Shown here: positions 28,735 through 47,306 of the stretch, in pieces
How the letters are laid out: every line of letters starts with the position of its first letter
Numbering within the stretch: position 1 is the first letter of the stretch
From: Terriglobia bacterium
Lineage (GTDB): Bacteria > Acidobacteriota > Terriglobia > 20CM-2-55-15
Direction of reading: 5' to 3'
NCBI GenBank assembly: GCA_965218585.1
Contig: CBDCLE010000002.1
Span: forward strand, 256,001 to 320,000
Length of the DNA stretch: 64,000 nucleotides
Made by a program: the position numbers and the translations under genes
Notes under the pieces: model-generated
What the model was told of the DNA's origin: nothing
The model's database searches: none
The model's input: only the letters and a program-made list of their open reading frames with translations

Positions 28735-29850
28735 ATGTTCAACATCAGCAGACGCCGGTTTCTGGGGGCGGCTGGCCCGTTGGCTGCCATGTCAGCCATG
28801 ACTCAAGAGGGGACAGCCGCCGCCCCCTCCGCTCAGGCCGACATTAGTGGACTGCCACGCGTCCGGCAGGAGTCGGTCGACCCGCCTTTTGTTCCCGAGC
28901 ACGAGCAGGTCGCCGCAGGCGGCCCGAAGATTATCGAGGTGGAGCTTGTCGTCCAGGAAGGCAAGAGGGTGATCGACGATGCCGGTACCGAAATCCAAGC
29001 CCTCATGTTCAACGATTCCATTCCAGGCCCTCTGATCATCTGCCACGAGGGGGACTACGTCGAGCTCACGCTGAAGAATCCGGAGGGCAATGTCTTCGGG
29101 CACAATGTCGACTTTCATGCCTCGACCGGGGCCCTGGGCGGAGGTGCCCTGACACACGTGCAACCGGGTGAACAGGTCCGGCTGCGCTGGAAGGCGGTCA
29201 AGCCGGGCACCTTCATCTATCACTGTGCGCCAGGTGGCTCGATGATTCCATACCATGTGGTTTCCGGTATGAATGGGGCCGTCATGGTGCTGCCAAGGGC
29301 CGGCCTCCAGGATCGCGATGGCACGCCCATCCGTTACGACAAAGCCTACTATGTCGGCGAGCAGGACTACTACATTCCCCGAGATTCTGACGGCAACTTC
29401 ATGAAGTACGAGGGCCCGGCGGACGGTATTGCCGATGTCCTGGAGGTGATGCGCAACCTTACGCCGACCCATGTGGTGTTCAATGGCCGGGTCGGTGCGC
29501 TGACCGGCGATGGCGCCATGAGGGCCCAGGTGGGCGAGACCGTCTTGTTCATCCACTCCCAGGCCAACCGGGATTCCAGGCCGCACCTGATCGGCGGACA
29601 TGGGGACTACGTGTGGGAACAGGGTTCATTTGCCGACCCCCCGGCTCACGGGCTTCAGACCTGGTTCGTCCGGGGCGGCTCGGCGGGCGCGGCCATCTAC
29701 ACTTTCAGGCAGCCGGGCCTCTATGCGTACCTCACCCACAACCTGATCGAGGCGGTCGAGTTGGGTGCCCTAGCCCATGTCATGGTCGATGGCGACTGGG
29801 ATAATGATCTGATGACGCAGGTTCAGGCTCCGGCGCCGATTCCGGGGTAA
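28735..29850 (+). CDS. nirK: Copper-containing nitrite reductase (Tat-exported)
   Basis: SRRRFL Tat motif; [36 protein letters not shown] and HNLIEA copper-site motifs. Confidence 0.96.
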
Positions 29851-36697: not shown

Positions 36698-38062
36698 GAG
36701 GTCATTACAAAAGGTGTGTAAAAGTCATCAGGCGGCGGCCTTCGATTTCATCACGACTCTGATGCCGTCAGCGAATTGCTGACCATCATAGACCTCTTGT
36801 AAGAGTTCGGATCCTTTTAAGTGTCGCCAAGCCTTCTCAGCGACACGTAGTAGCTTCCAGATCATTGCCGTTGCATTCTCGACACGCTTGAATCGGCGAG
36901 CGGCGTTGGTGCGGAGGCGAACCATGTCGAAGGGCGATTCGACGATGTTGGTTGTTCTCAGATGCACCCAGTGTTGTTTCGGGAACTCATAGAAAGTAAT
37001 CATCCGGTCCCAGTCCCGCAACAGCGTCTCACCCGCTTTGGGATAGTTCTTCTCATATCGGCGGACGAACTGATCCCGCTTTCGTTCGCAGGCCGCGCGG
37101 GAGTTCGCGAAGGCCATCCCATGAAGCAGCTGTCTGGCCGCGGGCTGCTCGGTCTTCGGCAGATGATCGACCACGTTGATCGACTTGTGGTTCCAGCAGC
37201 GTTGTTCCTGGCCCTGGGGCTGTTGCTCGGCCAGCGCGGACCAGATGCCCAGGTGACCGTCCGCGACAGTCAGCCGTCCCAGCTTCAGGCCCCGTCTCTG
37301 GAGATTGCGCAGAATGCGGCTCCAGGACTCCTTGCTTTCCCGCTGCCCGCTCTCACAGGCCAACAGCACTTTGCGCCCGTCTGACAAGGCTCCGATGATC
37401 ACCAGCAATGCCGCTCGCTCTTTCGCGATCCCCGCTTTCACGTACAAGCCGTCTGCCCACTGGTACACGACCTCGAGGCCGGACAGGTCCTGCTGGACCC
37501 ACTCGTCATACTCCAACTGCCAGGTCGATTTCAGTCGTTGGATCGATGCTCGCGACAACGGAGCGCCAGCGCCAAGCAGTCCGCGCATGGCCTGCTCGAA
37601 GTCCCCTGTGGCCAGACCGTGGAGGTAGAGATCGGGAAGTAGCTCGCCCAGCTGTTTCGATTTCCGTCGAAAATACGGCAGGATCTGACTCTCGAACCGC
37701 TCGGCGGTGTTTCAAACCCGAGGTCGTCGAACCTCCATCGTACCGTTCATCATTGCGAAGCGTCGCGGTTTCCCGTGACCGTTCCGGTATCCTCGTCGAT
37801 TCGGACTCCGCTCCAACTTTTCCCGACCCAGAAATTGAGTGACTTCGTCCTCGAGCAGCTCCTGTAGCCAGACTTGGACCCGGGATCGCGCCCAGTCCTC
37901 CAAACCTTCATACGCGTTCGTTGACGCCACTGATGCCGGTATGTTCTTCTTCTTCATGGGTGGTGTACCTTTCTCCCGATTGCTGCCGGGATTGCTTACG
38001 GTTTCGAATTCACCGAAAGCGTACACCGCCTTCTCTTTTTACACACCGATTGGAACGACCTC
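36698..38062 (-). mobile_element. IS256-family insertion sequence, copy 2 (1365 bp)
   Basis: Inverted near-identical copy of 5101-6465 with an 8-bp target duplication CAATCAAC (36690-36697, 38063-38070). Confidence 0.93.
36728..37957 (-). pseudogene. IS256 transposase with a nonsense codon
   Basis: CGA in copy 1 reads TGA here (37712-37714), splitting the ORF. Confidence 0.85.
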
Positions 38063-38875
38063 CAATCAACGCACAAGCGACGCTGGATGGAACCCAGATG
38101 GGTCTCCAACGGACACTAGCCCGACTGACCTCGGGTCTCAGAATTAACGGAGCTGCAGATGATGCCGCGGGCCTCGCGGTTGCTAATCGGCACAAACTGG
38201 ACAACACCGGTTTGTCCATTGGTATCCGGAGCGCGAATGACGCCATCAGCAAGCTCCAGATCGAAGACGGCGCGCTGACCAACATCGCGTTATTGCTGGA
38301 TCGGGCTCTGACTCTGGCGAGCCAGACCGCTTCAGATACTTTCACCGGTTCCAGATCTACGCTGGATGCCGAGTTCCAGTCCGTGATTTCAGAAATCACG
38401 AAGAACGCGACAGCTGCCGGTGTCGAGACGGGCAACGCGAACCTGAATGCCCGCTCGGTTTTCGTCGGAAACACGACGACAAACACATCGGCCAGCGTCA
38501 CTTACGTTTCGTTCGCGCTGACCTCAGCGGTCGATGGTCAGGGACTTGGCATCAGCACCCAGAACATCACGTCGCAGGCCAATGCAGCCACGGCAATCTC
38601 CAACATTCAGGCTGCCGTTGGAACGCTCGGTACCGTTCAGGGCCGCGTGGGTGCTGCGATGAACCGGTTGAGCTTCGCGATCTCGCAGGCGCAGACAATG
38701 TCTGTCAGTGTGAAGGCGTCGGAGTCTCGAATCCGGGACGCCAATATCGCAGAGGAAGCCGCTGCACTGACGAAGTTTAATATCCTGACCCAGAGTGGTT
38801 TGGCTGCACTGTCGCAGGCGAACCAGTCATCTCAATCCGTCCTGACCCTACTCCGGTAGTCCGTCCTACCCCCAC

Positions 38876-38912
38876 GGGAGCGACCTTTCTCAAACGGCAA
38901 AGCGTCGCTCCC
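38876..38912 (+). terminator. Hairpin after flagellin
   Basis: GGGAGCGAC...GTCGCTCCC inverted repeat. Confidence 0.45.
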
Positions 38913-38994
38913 GACCTCGGTTCCCTAAGACAATCCAATCTCCCAGCAGCTAAGGCACGAGGGCGGCAGTCACGAAGTCAGGGCTAGGGGTTCA

Positions 38995-39024
38995 TTGACA
39001 CTCCTTTGCCCGGGGACGGATAAT
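38995..39024 (+). promoter_or_regulatory. Sigma70-like promoter of the metal-efflux operon
   Basis: TTGACA-18 nt-GATAAT, 9 nt upstream of GTG 39034. Confidence 0.6.
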
Positions 39025-39033
39025 GATCGTACT

Positions 39034-39426
39034 GTGCAACCCCCGACTTCCTTCGTAACCGCCGTTGTAGCGCTGGCCGTCCTGTTGTCGACGCTGGCCT
39101 ACGCGCCTTTTTCGCATGTGCATTCCGAAGGGGGATACCACGGCGCGGGAGAAGTACACGGGTTCCAGGTGCATTCCCATCTTCCCGAGGCTCCCGCAGA
39201 AGGGGAAACGCACGAACCGGTCATCGGTGCTTCATCCGACGAGGGCCGTAACGTTGATCTGTTTCTTTCGCTGGCCGGCAAGCCTTTTCCGTTAGCGGAA
39301 TCTGTCGAGTTCTACACGGATGTCAGGCCGCAGTTTGAGACCAAGCAGCGTCAGGGTACCTCCCGACCCGACCGGGCTCGAGATCCCCCTGTTGCGAACG
39401 TGTCCTCCAGAGCCCCCCCTGCCTAG
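39034..39426 (+). CDS. His-rich exported leader protein ending in RAPP (putative arrest peptide, DUF2946-like)
   Basis: Hydrophobic N-terminus, HVH...H...H...HSH cluster and C-terminal RARDPP...SSRAPPA-stop. Confidence 0.7.
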   Translation: MQPPTSFVTAVVALAVLLSTLAYAPFSHVHSEGGYHGAGEVHGFQVHSHLPEAPAEGETHEPVIGASSDEGRNVDLFLSLAGKPFPLAESVEFYTDVRPQFETKQRQGTSRPDRARDPPVANVSSRAPPA

Positions 39427-39509
39427 ACCTGCCTGCGGCGCGACCGCGCCGATGTGTAGTTTCGTGCGTATTGGACGCACGGAGTTTTTCCCCGAACCGA
39501 CGAAGAAGG

Positions 39510-39935
39510 ATGATTGTGAAAATAGTTCCCGCACTGCTTGTTTTGTGCTTCGCGTTTCTAGCAAGCTGTACAACTCCCGTTCCGATCGAAGAAGAAGTTG
39601 AAGCTGAAGTGCTGTCTCGAACTGACTTTACCGACCGGATCGAGAATTTCTTCGAATATGATCCGCTGAGGTCGGGCCAGCCAAGTGCATTCTTGATTCA
39701 CCTGACCGATCTCCTCGACGGTTCTCCCGTGGGCGGGGCGCGCGTTCAATTGCTGGTCCGGTCCGAAGGCAGTCGAAATCAAGTTACGGAGACGACAGCG
39801 CTCGTCGGTCGGGTTACCGGTATTTACGTTGCGGAGTTGGCCGTGCCAAGCCCCGGAACCTATGACATTGAATTCCGGGTTCAGAACGATAGTATCGATG
39901 AGTCGATGACTCTTACCGGGTTTGAGGTCGAGTAA
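39510..39935 (+). CDS. Lipoprotein with an Ig-like (YtkA/FixH-like) domain
   Basis: Lipobox FLASC; IHLTDL.DGSPV and GIY.AEL..P.PGTY patterns; coupled to the downstream MFP gene. Confidence 0.7.
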   Translation: MIVKIVPALLVLCFAFLASCTTPVPIEEEVEAEVLSRTDFTDRIENFFEYDPLRSGQPSAFLIHLTDLLDGSPVGGARVQLLVRSEGSRNQVTETTALVGRVTGIYVAELAVPSPGTYDIEFRVQNDSIDESMTLTGFEVE

Positions 39936-39940
39936 GACGC

Positions 39941-41239
39941 ATGAAAACTGGAGAAAGTAACGACATGACGGAATCCAATGTATCTCGTGGTCACTCCGGG
40001 CCTATATGGATCGCTCTTATGGGCGTCGTGATTCTGGCGCTGCTGGTGACGCTCTACAGGAATCAGGCCGTGGAACTCGCTGCGGAAGAAGATCCCATCG
40101 AAGCCGCGTCCAGCCCAACGGTGTCCTTCTTGATGGAGCAGCAGTGGCTCATCCAGATGAAACTGGCCCAGGCCCAGCGTCGGGAACTCTCACCCCAGGT
40201 TCGTGTGGTAGGCCGAGTCATACCTGCGGATAACTACACGGCGATCATTTCTTCCCCTGTGACCGGATTGATACAGGATGCGAACCTGCCCGTTCTCGGC
40301 CAGGAGCTTCGCTCAGGCCAAGACGTTCTCACTGTCGAACAGATGCCTGAGCTATCGGATGCAGCCCAGGCGGCGCAGCTTCGCCTCGAAGCCAGTCGCA
40401 CTGAATCGGAACGGCGGCGTCTGGAGCAGTCCAAGGCAGAGGCCCAGATTCGCCTGCGGCAAGCCGAACGGGAATGGACACGGGCGAGGCGCCTGCACGA
40501 AGAGGAGTTGATGGCTCTCCAGGAAGTGGAGGCTGCCGAAACCGAATACGATGCGGCCGGGGCCGTCGTTGCCTCATACGCCGAACAGCTGACGGCTCTT
40601 GCCGAGGCACCAAGTCTGGATACCGCCATGCGGACGACCGCACCGCGACAGGTTGTCTCTGCTCCCATTGCCGGTCGGGTCAACCAGATTTTCAAAGAGG
40701 TTGGAGAACTGGTTCAACCCGGCGAACCGGTACTCGATATCGTGAATCTGGATGTCGTATGGGTCGAAGCGCCGATATTCGAAAAGGACCTTGCCGCTGT
40801 AATGGGCACCGGTGAAGTGATCTTCGAGACCATCGCGTATCCGGGCGTCGAATTCGTAGGCGAAGTCGTTGATGTCGGCGCGCGCATCGATGAAGAGACA
40901 CGAACGGCAGATGTCATCTTTTCCATACCCAATCGGGATGGCCGGCTTCGTATTGGAATGCAAGCCAACATTCGACTGGCGACCGGACCTCCCGAGGGCG
41001 TCGTTGCGATTCCGTCCGAAGCGGTTCTGGAACACGAGGGGCGTGACATCGTTTATGTCCTCCTCTCTGGCGAAGAGTTCGAACGCCGTAACGTCATATT
41101 GGGAGACCGGTACGGCGATGAAGTGGCGATTTTGGCCGGTGTGGAGCCCGGTGAGCGTGTCGTGACACAGGGGGCCTATCAGCTCAAGCTGCAGGAGTTG
41201 CAGCCGGCAGATCCGGGCGAGCATTCGCACGAGGTCTAA
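39941..41239 (+). CDS. RND efflux periplasmic adaptor (CusB/CzcB-like)
   Basis: SPVTG and APIAG lipoyl halves, coiled hairpin, VWVEAPIFEKDL, LRIGM and GERVVTQGAY motifs; His-containing tail. Confidence 0.92.
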   Translation: MKTGESNDMTESNVSRGHSGPIWIALMGVVILALLVTLYRNQAVELAAEEDPIEAASSPTVSFLMEQQWLIQMKLAQAQRRELSPQVRVVGRVIPADNYTAIISSPVTGLIQDANLPVLGQELRSGQDVLTVEQMPELSDAAQAAQLRLEASRTESERRRLEQSKAEAQIRLRQAEREWTRARRLHEEELMALQEVEAAETEYDAAGAVVASYAEQLTALAEAPSLDTAMRTTAPRQVVSAPIAGRVNQIFKEVGELVQPGEPVLDIVNLDVVWVEAPIFEKDLAAVMGTGEVIFETIAYPGVEFVGEVVDVGARIDEETRTADVIFSIPNRDGRLRIGMQANIRLATGPPEGVVAIPSEAVLEHEGRDIVYVLLSGEEFERRNVILGDRYGDEVAILAGVEPGERVVTQGAYQLKLQELQPADPGEHSHEV

Positions 41240-41249
41240 GGGGAGTAAC

Positions 41250-44200
41250 GTGCTGGACAAAATCATCCAATGGTCTCTCGACAATCGACTTCTGGTTGTC
41301 GTCGGCGCGATCGGTCTTCTTGTCTATGGCGGCATCGTCGCCGCCCGTACGCCGGTCGACGTTTTTCCCGATCTGACGGCTCCCACGGTAACGGTCCTCA
41401 CAGAGGCCCACGGCCTGGCGCCTGAAGAGGTTGAAGCTGTCGTGACCGTGCCGCTCGAGGCTGTCTTGAACGGCACGTCGGGCGTGTTTCGGGTCCGTTC
41501 GAATTCAGCCGCCGGCCTCTCGCTGATCTTTGCCGAGTTCGAGATCGGAACAGATATTTATCGTGCGCGACAGTTGGTAACGGAGAAACTCGGGCAAGTG
41601 CAGTTGCCGATTGGAGTCGAGCCTCCGGTGCTGGGGCCGATCTCTTCGACCATGGGCGAGATCATGCTCGTTTCCATGCGTTCGGAGGGCGAAACCTCCA
41701 ACATGGATCTCCGTTCGCTGGCCGACTGGGTTGTGCGGCCCCGCCTGCTCGCGATTACAGGTGTGTCCCAGGTCATTGTTATTGGCGGCGACCTGAAGCA
41801 GTACCAGGTGATCGTGGATCCCGCCTTGCTCGTTGATTACGACCTGTCTCTTGAGGACGTCACTCATGCGGTTGCCGAGGCGAACGCAGTCAGCACCGGC
41901 GGTTTCATGGAGCGAACCAACGAAGAGTTCCTGATCCGTGGGCGCGGCCGTGTGAGTCAGGTTGAAGATCTTGCGGAGTCGGTCATAACGATCAGGGACG
42001 GCAGTCCAATTCTGATCGAGCACGTCGCCGAAGTTCGTCTGGGTGCTGCAATAAAGCGGGGCGACGGAAGCTTCAACATGGAATCCGCGATCGTCGTCAC
42101 GATCCAGAAGCAGCCGAACGCCAACACGCTCGAGCTGACCTCGGAAATCGAAACGACGCTCGCATCGCTCGAACGGACGCTGCCCGAGGACGTTTCGATC
42201 GATGCCGAGGCGTTTCAACAGGCCAACTTCATCGAGCTCGCGGTCGGCAATGTCCGTCGTGCGTTGGTGGAAGGCGGACTGATGGTAAGCATCGTCCTGT
42301 TCCTTTTTCTCTGGAACTTCAGGACGACCTTCATCAGTCTGACCGCCATTCCCCTTTCTTTGCTGACCGCTATTCTCGCGATGAGCTATTTTGGCATCAG
42401 CATCAACACGATGACGCTGGGAGGTCTGGCGATCGCCATCGGGGAACTGGTAGACGATGCGATTGTGGACGTCGAGAACGTTTTCCGACGGCTCAAACAG
42501 AACGTCGGGTTGGGAAATCCTCAGAAGATTTCCACCGTCGTCTTTAAAGCGTCCAGCGAGATCCGGAATTCCATTTTTTACGCGACAGCGATCATTATTC
42601 TTGTTTTCCTCCCCCTGTTCTCACTTGCGGGATTCGAAGGGCGGATGTTTGCGCCGCTCGCGTTCGCATACATTTTTTCGATAGCGGCTTCGCTTCTGGT
42701 GGCCCTGACGGTGACGCCGGTCCTCTGCTACTGGATGCTCGGACGGTTCACACGGACCCAGGACACGGGCGATTCGCAACTGGTCGCGTTTTCTAAGCGA
42801 CGATACAGCAAGGTTCTGGGGTGGGCGCTGGCCCGTCCGTTCGAAGTCATAGCCGTCTCGGTTCTCCTGCTCGTGACGTCGGTCGCGCTGCTTCCGCTCA
42901 CCGGACGCGAGTTTCTTCCTCTGTTCAACGAAGGTGCCGTGAACGTCAACGTTACCCTGCCTCCGGGAACTTCGCTGGAAGAGTCGAATCGCGTCGGCAA
43001 CGTAGTCGAAGGAGTGTTGCATCAGATTCCAGAAGTCGTCTCAACGACCCGGCGAACGGGACGTGCCGAACAGGACGAACACGCTGCGGGAGTCAACGCG
43101 AGCGAACTGGAAGTCGTCATGCTGGCGTCGGATCGATCGCAGTTCGCGATCATGGACGAGATTCGCGAGAGTCTGGCACCCATCCCGGGAGTCGGCTTGG
43201 AGGTCGGGCAGCCGATTTCGCACCGCATCGACCATCTGTTGAGCGGCACCCAGGCTCAGATTGCCATCAAGTTGTTCGGCCCCGACCTTCCGACTCTGAG
43301 AAACAAAGCGGAAGAGATTCGCGCTTCGATGGAAAACGTTCCAGGCATCGTGGACCTGTTGGTGGAGCCTCAGGTCGGCGTGCCCCAGGTACAGGTGAAT
43401 ATAGATCGCGCCAATGCAGCAGCCGTGGGTCTGTCTGCGGGCGATCTGGCCGAGGCTGTGGAAACCGCTTTTAACGGTCGTGTGGTCGGGCAGGTCCTGG
43501 AGCAACAGCGAAGCTACGATCTCATCGTTCGCCTGGAAGACGAAGCTCGCGAATCACTGGATTCGATCCGGAACACGTTGATTGAAACACCGACCGGTGC
43601 GAAGGTTCCCATCGCTCAGGTTGCGGATGTGCGTTCTGACCAGGGGCCGAATACGATCAACCGGGAGAACGGGCAACGCCGGATCATTGTTCAGTCCAAC
43701 GTCTCGGGACGTGACCTGGGCAGCGTGATCAATGATGTTCGAGCTTCGGTGGGAAGGGAAGTCGCCCTCCCCGAAGGTTATTTCGTCCAGTATGGAGGCC
43801 AGTTTGAAGCGCAGGAGCAGGCCTCGGAGAGGATCTTCTGGTTGTCGCTCGTCGCGATCGGCGGAATATTTCTGCTGTTGTTTATCGCGTTGAAATCCGT
43901 GCGGGCTTCACTCCTTGTGATGGCGAACCTGCCTCTGGCCCTGATCGGTGGGGTCCTCATCGTCTTTCTATCGGGAGGCACGCTTTCAGTGGCTTCTCTG
44001 GTGGGTTTCATCACGCTCTTCGGTATCGCGACGCGCAACGGCATCATGCTTGTGACCCACTACCGGCATCTGATCGAGGAGGGTGTGGCCTTCCGTCAGG
44101 CTGTGATCCAGGGATCGATGGAGCGGTTGAGTCCTATCCTGATGACGGCGCTTGTTACCGGCGTCGGGTTGATACCTCTGGCTCTGGGAGTCGGCACGCC

Positions 44201-44375
44201 TGGAAAGGAAATCCAGCAGCCCATGGCCGCTGTAATTCTCGGCGGAATGCTCACTTCGACCTTTCTGAACATGATCGTCATTCCGACGCTGTATTTGAGA
44301 TATGGACGCGGGGAAGAGGAAGTCTGGGAAGACGAATGGGCAGACGGCGCGGATCCTACCCCTGCAGGCGATTGA
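41250..44375 (+). CDS. czcA: CusA/CzcA-family heavy-metal efflux RND permease
   Basis: 1041 aa with VDVFPDL, GLAPEEVE, GGLAIAIGELVDDAIVDVEN, GFITLFGIATRNG and ERLSPILMTA motifs. Confidence 0.9.
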   Translation: MLDKIIQWSLDNRLLVVVGAIGLLVYGGIVAARTPVDVFPDLTAPTVTVLTEAHGLAPEEVEAVVTVPLEAVLNGTSGVFRVRSNSAAGLSLIFAEFEIGTDIYRARQLVTEKLGQVQLPIGVEPPVLGPISSTMGEIMLVSMRSEGETSNMDLRSLADWVVRPRLLAITGVSQVIVIGGDLKQYQVIVDPALLVDYDLSLEDVTHAVAEANAVSTGGFMERTNEEFLIRGRGRVSQVEDLAESVITIRDGSPILIEHVAEVRLGAAIKRGDGSFNMESAIVVTIQKQPNANTLELTSEIETTLASLERTLPEDVSIDAEAFQQANFIELAVGNVRRALVEGGLMVSIVLFLFLWNFRTTFISLTAIPLSLLTAILAMSYFGISINTMTLGGLAIAIGELVDDAIVDVENVFRRLKQNVGLGNPQKISTVVFKASSEIRNSIFYATAIIILVFLPLFSLAGFEGRMFAPLAFAYIFSIAASLLVALTVTPVLCYWMLGRFTRTQDTGDSQLVAFSKRRYSKVLGWALARPFEVIAVSVLLLVTSVALLPLTGREFLPLFNEGAVNVNVTLPPGTSLEESNRVGNVVEGVLHQIPEVVSTTRRTGRAEQDEHAAGVNASELEVVMLASDRSQFAIMDEIRESLAPIPGVGLEVGQPISHRIDHLLSGTQAQIAIKLFGPDLPTLRNKAEEIRASMENVPGIVDLLVEPQVGVPQVQVNIDRANAAAVGLSAGDLAEAVETAFNGRVVGQVLEQQRSYDLIVRLEDEARESLDSIRNTLIETPTGAKVPIAQVADVRSDQGPNTINRENGQRRIIVQSNVSGRDLGSVINDVRASVGREVALPEGYFVQYGGQFEAQEQASERIFWLSLVAIGGIFLLLFIALKSVRASLLVMANLPLALIGGVLIVFLSGGTLSVASLVGFITLFGIATRNGIMLVTHYRHLIEEGVAFRQAVIQGSMERLSPILMTALVTGVGLIPLALGVGTPGKEIQQPMAAVILGGMLTSTFLNMIVIPTLYLRYGRGEEEVWEDEWADGADPTPAGD

Positions 44376-44477
44376 AAAAGCAGGGACAGAGCACTCTTTT
44401 TGCAACCAGGTTCGTATGCAAAATTCGTATGCAAAAGATGATTCGCTGGCAAAAAGAGTGCTCTGTCCCTACTTTTT
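44375..44477. repeat. Long palindromic intergenic element (REPIN/MITE-like), family A
   Basis: Arms AAAAAGCAGGGACAGAGCACTCTTTTTGC / GCAAAAAGAGTGCTCTGTCCCTACTTTTT; related to the element at 51649-51728. Confidence 0.75.
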
Positions 44478-44485
44478 ACCGAAAC

Positions 44486-44510
44486 GTGCGGTCATAGACC
44501 GCACCTACAG
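44486..44510 (-). repeat. GTAG-type REP element
   Basis: GTGCGGTCATAGACCGCACCTACAG, the same unit as at 55701-55774. Confidence 0.7.
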
Positions 44511-44547
44511 TATGCTTTCTGCTTCTTCATATATTTGATCCGGGAGG

Positions 44548-45863
44548 ATGAGAACTGTGAGACGACTACTTACGTTTGTTTGCCTGGTCGCTGTTGGGAG
44601 CCTTGTTATTTCAGGGGACCTCGCCGCCCAGGATCTGGTAATCACCAATGCCCGCATCATTGATGGGAACGGCGGCGTCATTGCCGACGGCACCGTGGTC
44701 GTCGAGGACGGCCGGATTTCTCAAGTGAGCCCCAGCGCGGCGACCGGTCCCGATGGCGCACGTCAAATCGATGCCCAGGGGATGACGGTTATGCCGGGCT
44801 TTATCGATGGTCACCGTCACATCATTGGCGGACCTGGAGACCAATGGCTCGCCGAGCAGGCCTCAGACCGCATGCGCGAGTTTCTGGAAGCCGGGTTCAC
44901 GTCAGTTCAGTCCGGTGGCGGTGCGATCCCACCACAGGTCGAACTCCGGCGCCGCATTGATGAAGGAGAATTGGAAGGCCCCCGTATTATTGTTTCTGTT
45001 TTTTCGCAACTGGCGGCCCCTCCAGAGGGAGGAGGTGGAGGCCGAGACAGAGGTGACCCGGCCCGTGGCGATTCGGCGCGTCCGGGCTTTCGTCCCACTG
45101 AAGCTGCGAATGTAATACCCGAAGAGGATACTCGTCGGACAGTGAGAGATGCCGTTGCAGCCGGTGTCGACGCCATCAAGGCGGTTATTCTCGTCACGCC
45201 AGGTGGTCCGGAAGAGAACACCCTGTCGGTCATCGTCGATGAAAGCCACAGCCAGGGCGTTCGCAGCATCACGCACGCCACCAGCGTTCAGGATACGGTT
45301 GCCGCTGTTCGGGCCGGAACGGATGTGCTCATGCATACGCCGCACACGGACCTGCTGGACATCTCCACGGCTCAAATGATTGCCGACGCCGGAATTCCCA
45401 TGGTTTCAACGCTTGGCGTATTTACTCCAACATTTGCCGAAGATAACCAGGCCATCCGGGAGTCGACCGGCGCTGATAACGAAGCGCGCTTCAGGGATCT
45501 GGGCCTCTTCCCCGAGGGTGCAGAACCTTGGTACAGCGTGGGACAGGGACCGGTGAATGCGCGGCTGTTCTGGGATGCGGGAGGTGTCTACGCCTTTGGA
45601 ACAGACACGACGTACCTGCCGAAGGACACGCTCGAAAACGAACTGAAGCCGCTCAGGCTCGTCTTTTCCAGACAGGACATCATCCAGATGTTGACGAAGA
45701 ATGCCGCAGCGGCCATGGGCCGAGTGACGATCTGGGTACGCTGGAGACCGGCAAACTGGCCGACATCGTTATGATCGACGGCAACCCGTTGGCGGAAACT
45801 TCAGATCTGTTGAAGGTTGCTGTTGTGATTCGTGATGGACGGGTGGTGGTTGATAAGAGGTAA
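44548..45863 (+). CDS. Secreted amidohydrolase, paralog 1 (frameshift near 45722)
   Basis: Signal peptide; MPGFIDGHRH and FGTD motifs. The C-terminal GTLETGKLAD is in a second frame; a single base is missing relative to paralog 2. Confidence 0.85.
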
Positions 45864-45897
45864 TTGAAGATGCACCCTTGGCCTCGGGGGTCGACTA

Positions 45898-45938
45898 TTC
45901 GGGGACGGAGACAGGAGAATCTGGTCTCCGTCCCCGAA
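45898..45938. repeat. Intergenic hairpin
   Basis: TTCGGGGACGGAGAC...GTCTCCGTCCCCGAA inverted repeat. Confidence 0.5.
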
Positions 45939-45986
45939 CTCGTTTACGCTATGATGACTTACTTCCTATAAGCACAGTCCCGGAGG

Positions 45987-47306
45987 ATGAGAACCGTGAA
46001 ACGACTACTTACGTTTGTTTGCCTGGTCGCAGTTGGGAGTCTCGCTGTTTCTGGAGATCTCGAGGCTCAGGATCTGGTAATTACGAATGCCCGCATCATT
46101 GATGGAAACGGTGGCGTCATCTCCGACGGCACTGTTGTTGTAGAGGACGGGCGGATTTCTTCGGTCAGTGCCGGAGATGCGACCGGCCCCGACGGTGCGC
46201 GTCAAATCGACGCTCAGGGGATGACGGTGATGCCGGGCTTTATCGATGGTCACCGCCACATCATTGGCGGTCCTGCCGACCAGTGGCTGGCCGAGCAGGC
46301 TTCAGACCGCATGCGCGAGTTTCTGGAAGCCGGGTTCACCGCCGTTCAGTCCGCTGGCGGCGCCGTGCCACCCCAGCTCGAACTTCAACGACGCATCAAT
46401 GAGGGAGAACTGGACGGTCCCCGCATTGTCGTAACCGCCCGTGCCCAGGTCGCGGCTGCTGCTGGTCGAGGTGGCGCTGGTCGCGGAGGATTCAGTGATC
46501 CGGCCCGGGGTAACGGTGCGCGTCCGGGCTTCCGTCCCACCGAACCCGCTAACGCAATACCTGAAGCCGATACCCGTCAAGCGATCAGGGCGGCGGCTGC
46601 GGCCGGTGTCGAGGCGATCAAGACGGCTATCGTTGTCACGCCCGGCGGTCCGGAGGAGAACACCCTGTCCGTCATCGCCGAGGAAAGCGCCAGCCGGGGC
46701 ATGCGGAGTGTTACGCACGCGACTGCCACTGAGGACACGCTTGCGGCCATTCGAGCCGGGACGCATGTGCTCATGCACACGCCACACACGACGATGCTGA
46801 CTATCTCCGAGGCTCAGGAGATTGCGAACGCCGGAATCCCGATGGTCTCGACCCTTGGCGTATACGTTCCGACGTTTTCCGAAGACAACTCGGCGGCTCG
46901 GGCGGCGACCGGCTCTGACAACGAGCCCCGTTTCCGCGACCTGGGCCTCTATCCGGAAGGCGCGCTGCCCTGGTACAGCGTCGGGCAGGGTCCTGTCAAT
47001 GCGAGACTGTTCTGGGATGCGGGGGGTATCTACGCCTTTGGAACAGACACCTCGTATCTGCCGAAGGACACGCTGGAACACGAACTGAAGCCACTCAGGC
47101 TCGTCTTTTCCAGACAGGACATCATCCAGATCATGACGAAGAACGCGGCGGCGGCTATTGGCCGCAGTGACGATCTGGGAACGCTCGAGACCGGCAAGCT
47201 GGCCGACATCGTGATGATCGACGGGAACCCGCTGGCCGAAACGTCAGATCTCTTGAAGGTGGCTTTAGTCGTTCGTGATGGACGAGTCGTTGTGGATAAG
47301 AGATAA
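45987..47306 (+). CDS. Secreted amidohydrolase, paralog 2
   Basis: MPGFIDGHRH, THA, MHTPH, FGTD and GTLETGKLAD motifs; tandem duplicate of 44548-45863. Confidence 0.9.
   Translation: MRTVKRLLTFVCLVAVGSLAVSGDLEAQDLVITNARIIDGNGGVISDGTVVVEDGRISSVSAGDATGPDGARQIDAQGMTVMPGFIDGHRHIIGGPADQWLAEQASDRMREFLEAGFTAVQSAGGAVPPQLELQRRINEGELDGPRIVVTARAQVAAAAGRGGAGRGGFSDPARGNGARPGFRPTEPANAIPEADTRQAIRAAAAAGVEAIKTAIVVTPGGPEENTLSVIAEESASRGMRSVTHATATEDTLAAIRAGTHVLMHTPHTTMLTISEAQEIANAGIPMVSTLGVYVPTFSEDNSAARAATGSDNEPRFRDLGLYPEGALPWYSVGQGPVNARLFWDAGGIYAFGTDTSYLPKDTLEHELKPLRLVFSRQDIIQIMTKNAAAAIGRSDDLGTLETGKLADIVMIDGNPLAETSDLLKVALVVRDGRVVVDKR

Follow-up and report, generated by a model that had tools for sequence, protein, structure and literature searches.

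A cysteine-free, histidine-bearing RAPP leader as a candidate nascent-chain regulator of a metal efflux operon in Terriglobia

The two metal-sensing arrest leaders with experimental backing in the literature consulted here, CruR and CutF, use cysteines and copper. CruR of Bordetella pertussis, a DUF2946 protein with an export signal, a CxxC motif and a terminal RAPP, is encoded by the first gene of an operon whose target is a TonB importer. Copper has been reported to release the CruR arrest and thereby shut the operon (PMC9426467), whereas for CutF of Rhodobacter capsulatus metal has been reported to prolong the stall and switch a detoxification gene on (PMC9973294; bioRxiv 10.1101/2025.02.05.636593). 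Here we analyse a 64,000-nt stretch of DNA from a Terriglobia bacterium (GenBank assembly GCA_965218585.1, contig CBDCLE010000002.1, positions 256,001 to 320,000 of the forward strand; hereafter the window), in which a 130-residue leader open reading frame (ORF) with histidines, no cysteine and a terminal RAPP precedes a heavy-metal efflux operon of the resistance–nodulation–division (RND) type. Taken as a whole, the evidence makes it on balance probable that this leader controls the operon in cis through its nascent chain, in the way proposed below.

Comparison with described systems

The leader resembles CutF in being a small exported upstream ORF (uORF) with a metal motif, a C-terminal proline-rich stall motif, a short spacer and metal detoxification genes downstream; it differs in that CutF has CxxxC, a PPP stall rescued by EF-P and a melting stem around the Shine–Dalgarno (SD) sequence, whereas the window leader is Cys-free and carries RAPP together with an upstream R/H-x-P-P motif. 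The rules used to collect CutF-like proteins (fewer than 150 aa, PP in the last 15 residues, an N-terminal signal and a same-strand neighbour within 1000 nt; PMC9973294) describe the window leader, which has 130 aa, PP at 118–119 and 128–129, a spacer of 89 nt and a signal as judged from its hydrophobic N-terminus. That survey reports 5,334 CutF-like proteins in 29 clusters, with OEP, ACR_tran and CusB as frequent neighbours; members of its histidine-only clusters 14 and 17 precede HupE/UreJ rather than RND pumps, and the main text makes no mention of Acidobacteria (PMC9973294).

With CruR the leader shares its place as first operon gene, an export signal, the terminal RAPP and, tentatively, a stretch at the 3′ end in which C exceeds G; a conserved distance between an upstream motif and RAPP is also found in CruR, where it is 45 residues (PMC9426467). 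In contrast to CruR, with its CxxC and importer target, the window leader has no Cys and an exporter target, its histidine site lies about 80 residues from the arginine of RAPP, and its fixed ruler runs from a D-L-F strand. DUF2946 (PF11162) gave no match in the window leader at E values up to 1, nor in any of 39 family members at E up to 0.5. Judged by sequence, the leader appears to work like CruR and CutF and falls within the CutF-like rules, but it is not a DUF2946 member. ApdA, ApdP and SecM offer a further parallel in their RAPP core, tolerated substitutions and N-terminal localisation signal (PMC10951233, PMC12992588), but they monitor protein export, precede sec genes and have no metal motif.

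By language-model features, the closest named look-alikes (0.94–0.96) are DUF6769 of Bacteroidota and CzcI (PF28244) of Cupriavidus, likewise small exported His-rich proteins ahead of metal RND genes; they share 97–145 of 256 features with the leader, which is under the level typical of same-family hits, and no DUF6769 or CzcI profile match was obtained among 39 leader members (the presence of PF28244 in the Pfam copy used is unconfirmed). DUF6769 entries in the list of PMC12992588 end in RAPP before RND genes, whereas CzcI, named in PMC9973294 as standing before czcCBA, is reported there to be without a C-terminal proline motif and has been described as a quencher of the pump (PMC10127602).

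The catalogue of RAPP/RGPP uORFs by Fujiwara et al. (PMC12992588) also holds His-rich entries, but the sections consulted do not discuss RND targets and neither define nor test a four-His family with a ruler; in its source data, RAPP uORFs outnumber AAPP uORFs before genes for RND adaptors (620 versus 148), TolC (530 versus 380) and CusA/CzcA (50 versus 7), the enrichment ahead of CusA/CzcA amounting to 28-fold. Two of its listed proteins upstream of TolC genes (MBZ5575594.1 and MCH8266643.1) carry the motifs of the leader family by eye. The arrest-leader concept is already known, and leaders in an export context, leaders rich in His and the opposite polarity have each been published. The initial annotation of the locus overstated its novelty: metal-induced stalling that switches on a detoxification gene (CutF), CutF-like leaders at CusC/CusB/CusA-type genes, His-only clusters and RAPP uORFs before CusA/CzcA are all on record. 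In a search that covered the subscription literature thinly, no definition or test of the histidine leader family, of its ruler, of the tandem motif or of the exchange with a BlaI/BlaR-like module was found.

A leader family with invariant histidines and an arrest motif

The promoter and leader comprise the following features.

38995..39024, + strand: sigma-70-type promoter, TTGACA-18-GATAAT, matching the consensus at 11/12 positions and predicted to give a near-leaderless mRNA
39034..39426, + strand: leader ORF of 130 aa, a candidate RAPP arrest peptide with sensing through His (from ORF reading, homologs and a 60-sequence alignment)
39046..39102, + strand: hydrophobic signal or anchor helix, residues 5–23, followed by A-x-A-P (model pLDDT 75–95)
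39112..39180, + strand: two HxH motifs (H28/H30 and H47/H49) in a predicted beta-hairpin, candidate four-His metal site (His in 60/60)
39253..39267, + strand: V-D-L-F strand, its spacing to the arrest motif fixed (from the alignment)
39379..39390, + strand: upstream RDPP, possible second pause site or arrest modulator (family pattern R/H-D/A/S/G-P-P/A)
39409..39420, + strand: terminal RAPP arrest motif (R, P and P in 60/60)

The family was assembled by building a profile from 10 close homologs, which retrieved 38 representatives at E ≤0.001; the 60-sequence alignment combines profile hits with 14 leaders from genome loci and includes near-duplicates. The closest relatives of the window leader are from Acidobacteriota, the nearest locus (L001) being labelled Terriglobia. 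Invariant in all 60 aligned leaders are H28, H30, H47, H49, R126, P128 and P129. The histidine cluster first noted in the leader is present, but of its seven histidines only these four are conserved and the remaining three are not; the window leader has no Cys, and Cys is not conserved in the family either (41/60 leaders have none after the first HxH, and the fullest Cys column reaches ≤7/60).

The ORF itself reads as initially annotated, with a hydrophobic segment (Kyte–Doolittle 2.0 over residues 7–25) and the C-terminus RARDPP-VANVSS-RAPPA-stop. An R[AGS]PP within 10 aa of the stop occurs in only 2 of the 343 stop-to-stop frames of at least 80 aa in the window, namely the leader ORF and a frame antisense to an amidohydrolase gene, and in 7/7 ortholog pairs the third codon positions diverge most. 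Given this rare ending, the divergence pattern and the conservation of the family, a chance ORF at 39034–39426 was rejected. The promoter, too, is where it was first placed, with GTG39034 starting 9 nt past it, and it is the sole promoter-like match in a scan of 38000–45500. The geometry is kept in 14/15 leader loci (score ≥9 with an in-frame start 6–9 nt after the −10 element), compared with 24/1140 random windows that reach the score; leaderless genes in Acidobacteria have been estimated at ~13% (PMC3160421).

Pro25, at position +1 of a possible signal peptidase site, is kept in 57/60 leaders; proline at +1 hinders cleavage by signal peptidase. Beyond the anchor, predicted strands 27–32 and 43–48 (pLDDT about 65–75, in a model of low overall confidence with pTM 0.33) carry the two HxH motifs, which makes the pairs together a candidate for a single four-His metal site. 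Folding the L017 leader from its sequence alone gave no usable model (pLDDT 32), and Foldseek with the window leader model returned nothing from the PDB at E ≤0.001. The leader and 39 relatives had zero matches in Pfam and NCBIfam, as did the interval 38800–40000 in Rfam.

The C-terminal half of the leader has a fixed length and a poorly conserved sequence. From D75 to R126 the spacing is 51.5 ± 0.7 residues across the 60 aligned leaders (overall about 51–54), whereas the linker from H49 to D75 is looser (28.3 ± 2.2) and the His-to-His linker has a standard deviation of 2.9. Without alignment, the D-to-R spacing is 51–53 in 15/15, for a pattern picked on the very same sequences.

At the arrest motif, the 60 leaders have RAPP (41), RSPP (14), RPPP (4) or RGPP (1), with one residue beyond it in 38/60. 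Mutagenesis of ApdA/ApdP found Gly fully and Ser, Asp and Pro partly permissive at the second position and Arg irreplaceable (PMC12992588), and position 127 of the leaders is occupied only by Ala, Ser, Pro or Gly, all of which permit arrest there. In vitro, all seven C-terminal RAPP/RGPP proteins of S. lividans that were assayed, as well as CruR, were reported to arrest, and the source data show RAPP and RDPP depleted in the proteomes of Acidobacteriota, to 0.12 and 0.18 of the expected frequency (PMC12992588). By this analogy we consider it highly likely that the leader arrests the ribosome at RAPP. The second xxPP site suggested early on is conserved in the alignment, in which an R/H-x-P-P-type motif precedes the terminal RxPP (HDPP 24, RDPP 12, RDPA 5, HSPP 5, RGPP 4, RAPP 4, HAPP 4, HGPP 1 and GSLP 1), its first Pro lying 8–9 residues before the terminal Arg; RxPP and R/HxPP have been recovered as selected stallers (PMC10951233).

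The downstream operon and its likely metal

Behind the leader, the order lipoprotein, adaptor and CusA/CzcA pump agrees with the initial annotation.

39516..39935, + strand: lipoprotein with a YtkA-like Ig fold, likely start GTG39516 (SD-like GAAGAAGG at 39502-39509)
39941..41239, + strand: RND periplasmic adaptor, CzcB/CusB-like, with a His-bearing C-terminal tail (TIGR01730)
41250..44375, + strand: CusA/CzcA-family heavy-metal RND pump (TIGR00914, 855.9 bits against a cut-off of 701.45)

The match of the lipoprotein to the YtkA-like family is weak (E 0.03). Its start at GTG39516 is favoured by GAAGAAGG 6 nt upstream and by homolog P0012, which begins at the same point, so that the spacer between leader and lipoprotein measures 89 nt rather than the 83 nt first given. 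A search of plasmids with the lipoprotein (tblastn) had zero matches. No outer-membrane factor gene was found in the window, including the lipoprotein–adaptor junction at 39935–39941, and the channel must therefore be supplied from elsewhere; such a gene is also missing in L001, L004, L056 and L061 and present in 10/14 leader loci. In line with the initial annotation, no metal-responsive regulator family occurs among the 57 ORF references of the window scanned with Pfam, a scan that took in ORFs of at least 70 aa not overlapped by longer ones.

The best solved relative of the pump is ZneA, to which it is nearer than to CusA, and His611, His658 and His662 of the pump are invariant in 56/56 loci. 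The periplasmic three-methionine site of CusA (M573, M623 and M672) is not kept, the aligned residues being Asn, Ala and His662. Given the kinship with ZneA, the missing methionines, the invariant histidines and the HupE/UreJ genes in operons with a second leader type (below), the sensed metal is more likely to be Ni, Co or Zn than Cu(I).

Alternative modules at the same slot

Homologous loci were fetched through the lipoprotein alignment, blind to the leader, from species-representative genomes, and the best 80 of 107 confirmed loci were compared. The gene directly upstream of the operon is an RxPP leader in 14 of these, a BlaR-like HExxH membrane protein in 59 (61/80 when two loci cut by contig ends are included), another exported His-rich ORF ending in P-x-x-P-P-K and unrelated to the leader in 4, and an unrelated gene in 1; in none of the 80 do two of these modules stand together at that position. 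As leader, BlaI/BlaR-like pair and other leader alternate there, we take the slot to be regulatory.

A blaI-like gene precedes the BlaR-like gene in 58/59 loci; on a subset, Pfam confirmed the repressor in 3/3 and matched the BlaR-like protein to M48/M56-like peptidases in 4/4. The leader profile had zero hits in BlaI loci. A palindrome, ACTA-N7-TAGT, lies in the promoter region of 55/55 BlaI loci, from which the motif was itself derived, and of 0/19 leader loci, and it overlies the −35 element of the BlaI-type loci. The BlaR-like protein carries a conserved His cluster of its own, and the BlaI/BlaR-like pair is a candidate metal-sensing proteolytic relay; no paper was found that describes a BlaI/M56 pair heading an RND operon for heavy metals, again with thin coverage of the subscription literature.

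The arrangement in which a BlaI/CopY-type repressor and a BlaR-like HExxH protein head the same pump operon is seen at L002:6357-7920 and in 58 further loci. The second leader type (L024:7425-7820, L057:7416-7826, L062:7341-7832 and L074:1371-1769) is His-rich and exported, has 5′ leaders and spacers of about 114–141 nt, and falls within the BlaI group on the tree; its operons include a HupE/UreJ gene in at least three cases (L024, L057 and L062), and that of L057 also has a gene for an Fe/Mn-SOD C-terminal domain. ORFs with Cys and His and with P-P-x-x-P-P-K-like tails lie divergent from blaI in L039:5656-6141 (−), L048:803-1288 (−) and L049:589-948 (−), that of L039 preceding a second CusA-type operon.

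Spacer folding and base composition

Three features mark the RNA at the leader stop and in the spacer.

39367..39441, + strand: C-rich, G-poor mRNA beneath and immediately behind where a stalled ribosome would sit, candidate Rho loading site (base counts)
39436..39451, + strand: spacer hairpin 1, 6 bp (folding)
39460..39489, + strand: spacer hairpin 2, 10 bp and then five U, pause- or terminator-like (folding; not listed by the terminator scan)

Both hairpins form with or without masking. The folding z score of the spacer is −2.3 in the window and falls below −1.8 in only 3/15 loci; a conserved intrinsic terminator was rejected, a clear hairpin with U5 being found in the window alone among the 15. 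Across loci, the spacers between leader and lipoprotein span 38–94 nt and bear hairpins, and the GC-rich spacer of the initial annotation is close to average, at 58–61% GC versus 58% for the window. The occlusion of the lipoprotein ribosome-binding site (RBS) that the same source had asked about is not apparent from folding: with a ribosome footprint placed at RAPP, opening the start region costs 10.0 rather than 9.5 kcal/mol in the window, and among the 15 loci the cost falls by more than 1 kcal in 3 (L016, L019 and L037) and rises in 3. A switch that unmasks the RBS was rejected as a general mechanism, the footprint having no consistent effect over the 15 loci, and leader–RBS pairing in cognate versus non-cognate combinations was not significant (permutation p 0.11). 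Two loci, L056 and L061, show strong pairing of the leader coding sequence with the RNA immediately ahead of the RBS (p<0.005 versus synonymous recoding; p 0.06 in L004); the helix (L056:7770-7932 and the same region of L061) opens only with ribosomes over the upstream coding region and is absent in the window. Several loci have no obvious SD sequence ahead of the lipoprotein.

The final 60 nt of the leader ORF contain 27 C versus 15 G, a C-richness that is weak in the window alone (p 0.06–0.08). Across loci, C minus G in the 15 nt after the leader stop is 2.9 versus 0.4 at 65 control stops (p 0.001; p 0.007 with 10 less related loci), and this segment is also pyrimidine-rich; synonymous G is depleted over the last 15 leader codons, and CCG is avoided at the motif prolines (3/30 versus 358/736 in Pro–Pro pairs of the operon genes). 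This bias resembles the bubble of C over G reported at the end of cruR (PMC9426467), but slow codons or the avoidance of structure would also account for it.

Proposed mechanism and alternatives

We propose that a housekeeping promoter with no visible operator would give a near-leaderless mRNA from which the nascent leader would become anchored in the inner membrane, with its four-His hairpin outside. By analogy with ApdA, ApdP and CruR, the ribosome would arrest at RAPP with P128 in the P site and P129 in the A site, and the D-L-F strand 51–54 residues upstream would determine how long the chain is when pulling or folding can free the ribosome. Binding of a divalent metal at the His site would alter the duration of the arrest, and the arrested ribosome would shield the C-rich end of the ORF and keep Rho from terminating in the spacer. 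As arrest would protect from Rho and the target is an exporter, metal should prolong the arrest (that is, the polarity of CutF with the output of CruR).

We hold it to be very probable that the leader regulates the pump operon in cis and likely that it senses metal through histidine; coupling to Rho, with an arrest prolonged by metal, is the coupling that we favour, though at somewhat less than even odds. The account in full detail is tentative: a Cys-free tethered chain would sense periplasmic Ni, Co or Zn, the ruler and the tandem R/H-x-P-P motifs would hold the ribosome over the Rho site so that metal turns the pump on, and in Acidobacteriota this module would be swappable with a His-bearing BlaI/BlaR-type relay and with an unrelated His/Pro leader. 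The original suggestion of a histidine-based, Cys-free arrest leader for metal export is well backed by comparison, through conservation and through the slot shared with a repressor; the arrest and the metal response we infer.

Several observations weigh against this account. Metal-driven folding more commonly releases arrest, as in CruR, and in the leader model the hairpin is followed by a helix rather than by a strand. Most of the family (46/60) comes from motif-selecting sequence searches, without genomic context, and two sequences were excluded before family counts, the repeat protein P0157 and P0162, which is without a terminal RxPP. In the coding part, the base excess beyond amino-acid content is not significant (C−G Fisher p 0.08; YC p 0.06), and the loci are related. 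The slot swaps amount to only about 3–4 tree changes (all labels need 4), the RxPP loci being set apart from the rest by one branch (SH-aLRT 89, in a quick tree of 70/81 rows), and the split follows class, with 11/14 leaders in Terriglobia and 38/61 BlaI-type loci in Blastocatellia, the rest mostly unlabelled; the exclusivity of the modules therefore rests on few events. Regulators adjoin the leader in L017 (a divergent OmpR-type response regulator), L023 (an ECF sigma factor) and L019 (an HTH-PBP protein), and the literature search yielded no experiment on any member of the family.

The wiring may also be the opposite of the one proposed, with arrest by default keeping the operon off (the ribosome never reaching the stop, or the spacer forming a terminator-like hairpin) until metal folds the His hairpin, frees the chain and turns the pump on. 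By default, RAPP peptides arrest strongly and resist EF-P (PMC12992588), metal relieves the arrest of CruR (PMC9426467), and the 10-bp hairpin with U5 in the window, the loci without an obvious SD sequence, which would suit translational coupling, and the ribosome-opened helix of L056 and L061 could all serve such a switch; yet hairpin-bearing spacers of 38–94 nt are long for re-initiation, the window hairpins form regardless of masking and cognate leader–RBS pairing is not general, and we regard this wiring as the strongest of the alternatives, though unlikely. Translational control as in CutF, in which an arrest prolonged by metal would melt a stem hiding the lipoprotein RBS, has been demonstrated for CutF/CutO with a comparably short spacer (PMC9973294; bioRxiv 10.1101/2025.02.05.636593), and RBSs rich in purines could base-pair with the pyrimidine-rich segment that follows the stop. 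The drop in opening energy in three loci would fit it as well, but energy rises in three others, the window is unaffected and its RBS lies about 85 nt from the stall site, beyond two independent hairpins; such control seems improbable here.

A little less probable still is that the leader is a stable protein, anchored in the membrane and binding metal, that assists the pump (a chaperone or quencher) and whose proline tail is incidental. The conserved four-His site would suit this role, as would the precedent of CzcI, a periplasmic pump quencher encoded upstream of czcCBA (PMC10127602) whose cluster is among the feature look-alikes, at a score of 0.94 but with only 97/256 features shared. An accessory would, however, leave unexplained the invariant, arrest-permissive R-x-P-P, the weakly conserved C-terminal half of fixed length, the codon bias and the replacement by a repressor, and 61/80 operons have no such protein at the slot (in 4/59 BlaI loci a different small His/PP ORF lies away from the slot). 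That the leader instead monitors secretion or the state of the envelope, in the manner of SecM or ApdA, and tunes a large envelope complex without regard to metal is very improbable: RAPP peptides were first found monitoring Sec/YidC (PMC12992588), and a signal anchor with a ruler fits force sensing, but the four invariant histidines, the metal-pump context and the His-bearing BlaR-like alternative module all speak for metal.

If the account in full detail is correct, ribosome-arrest sensing would widen from copper to other divalent metals, and BlaR-like proteins would be pointed to as metal sensors. The swap with a BlaI/BlaR-like module is comparative evidence for leaders replacing control by transcription factors. 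With its four invariant histidines, its ruler of fixed length, its tandem stall motifs and its leaderless promoter, the histidine family is a sharply defined Cys-free case in which to ask whether arrest peptides sense Ni, Co or Zn and how a metal could lengthen a RAPP arrest instead of ending it.

Other features in the window

Directly upstream of the promoter lies a flagellin-domain gene (37638-38859), its 5′ part apparently cut by a Mutator-family insertion sequence (IS; 36728 to about 38026). At least seven transposase genes occur in 2218-63641 (DDE/DUF772, Mutator twice, IS110, IS240/IS6, IS1595 and DDE group 1). Between two IS elements, a gene of the multicopper-oxidase family (28735-29850) with a twin-arginine-like signal resembles copper nitrite reductase; no leader-like ORF was found upstream of it. 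Two tandem paralogous secreted amidohydrolases are encoded at 44548-47306, the first with its C-terminal part in another frame (45528-45863), which suggests a frameshift.

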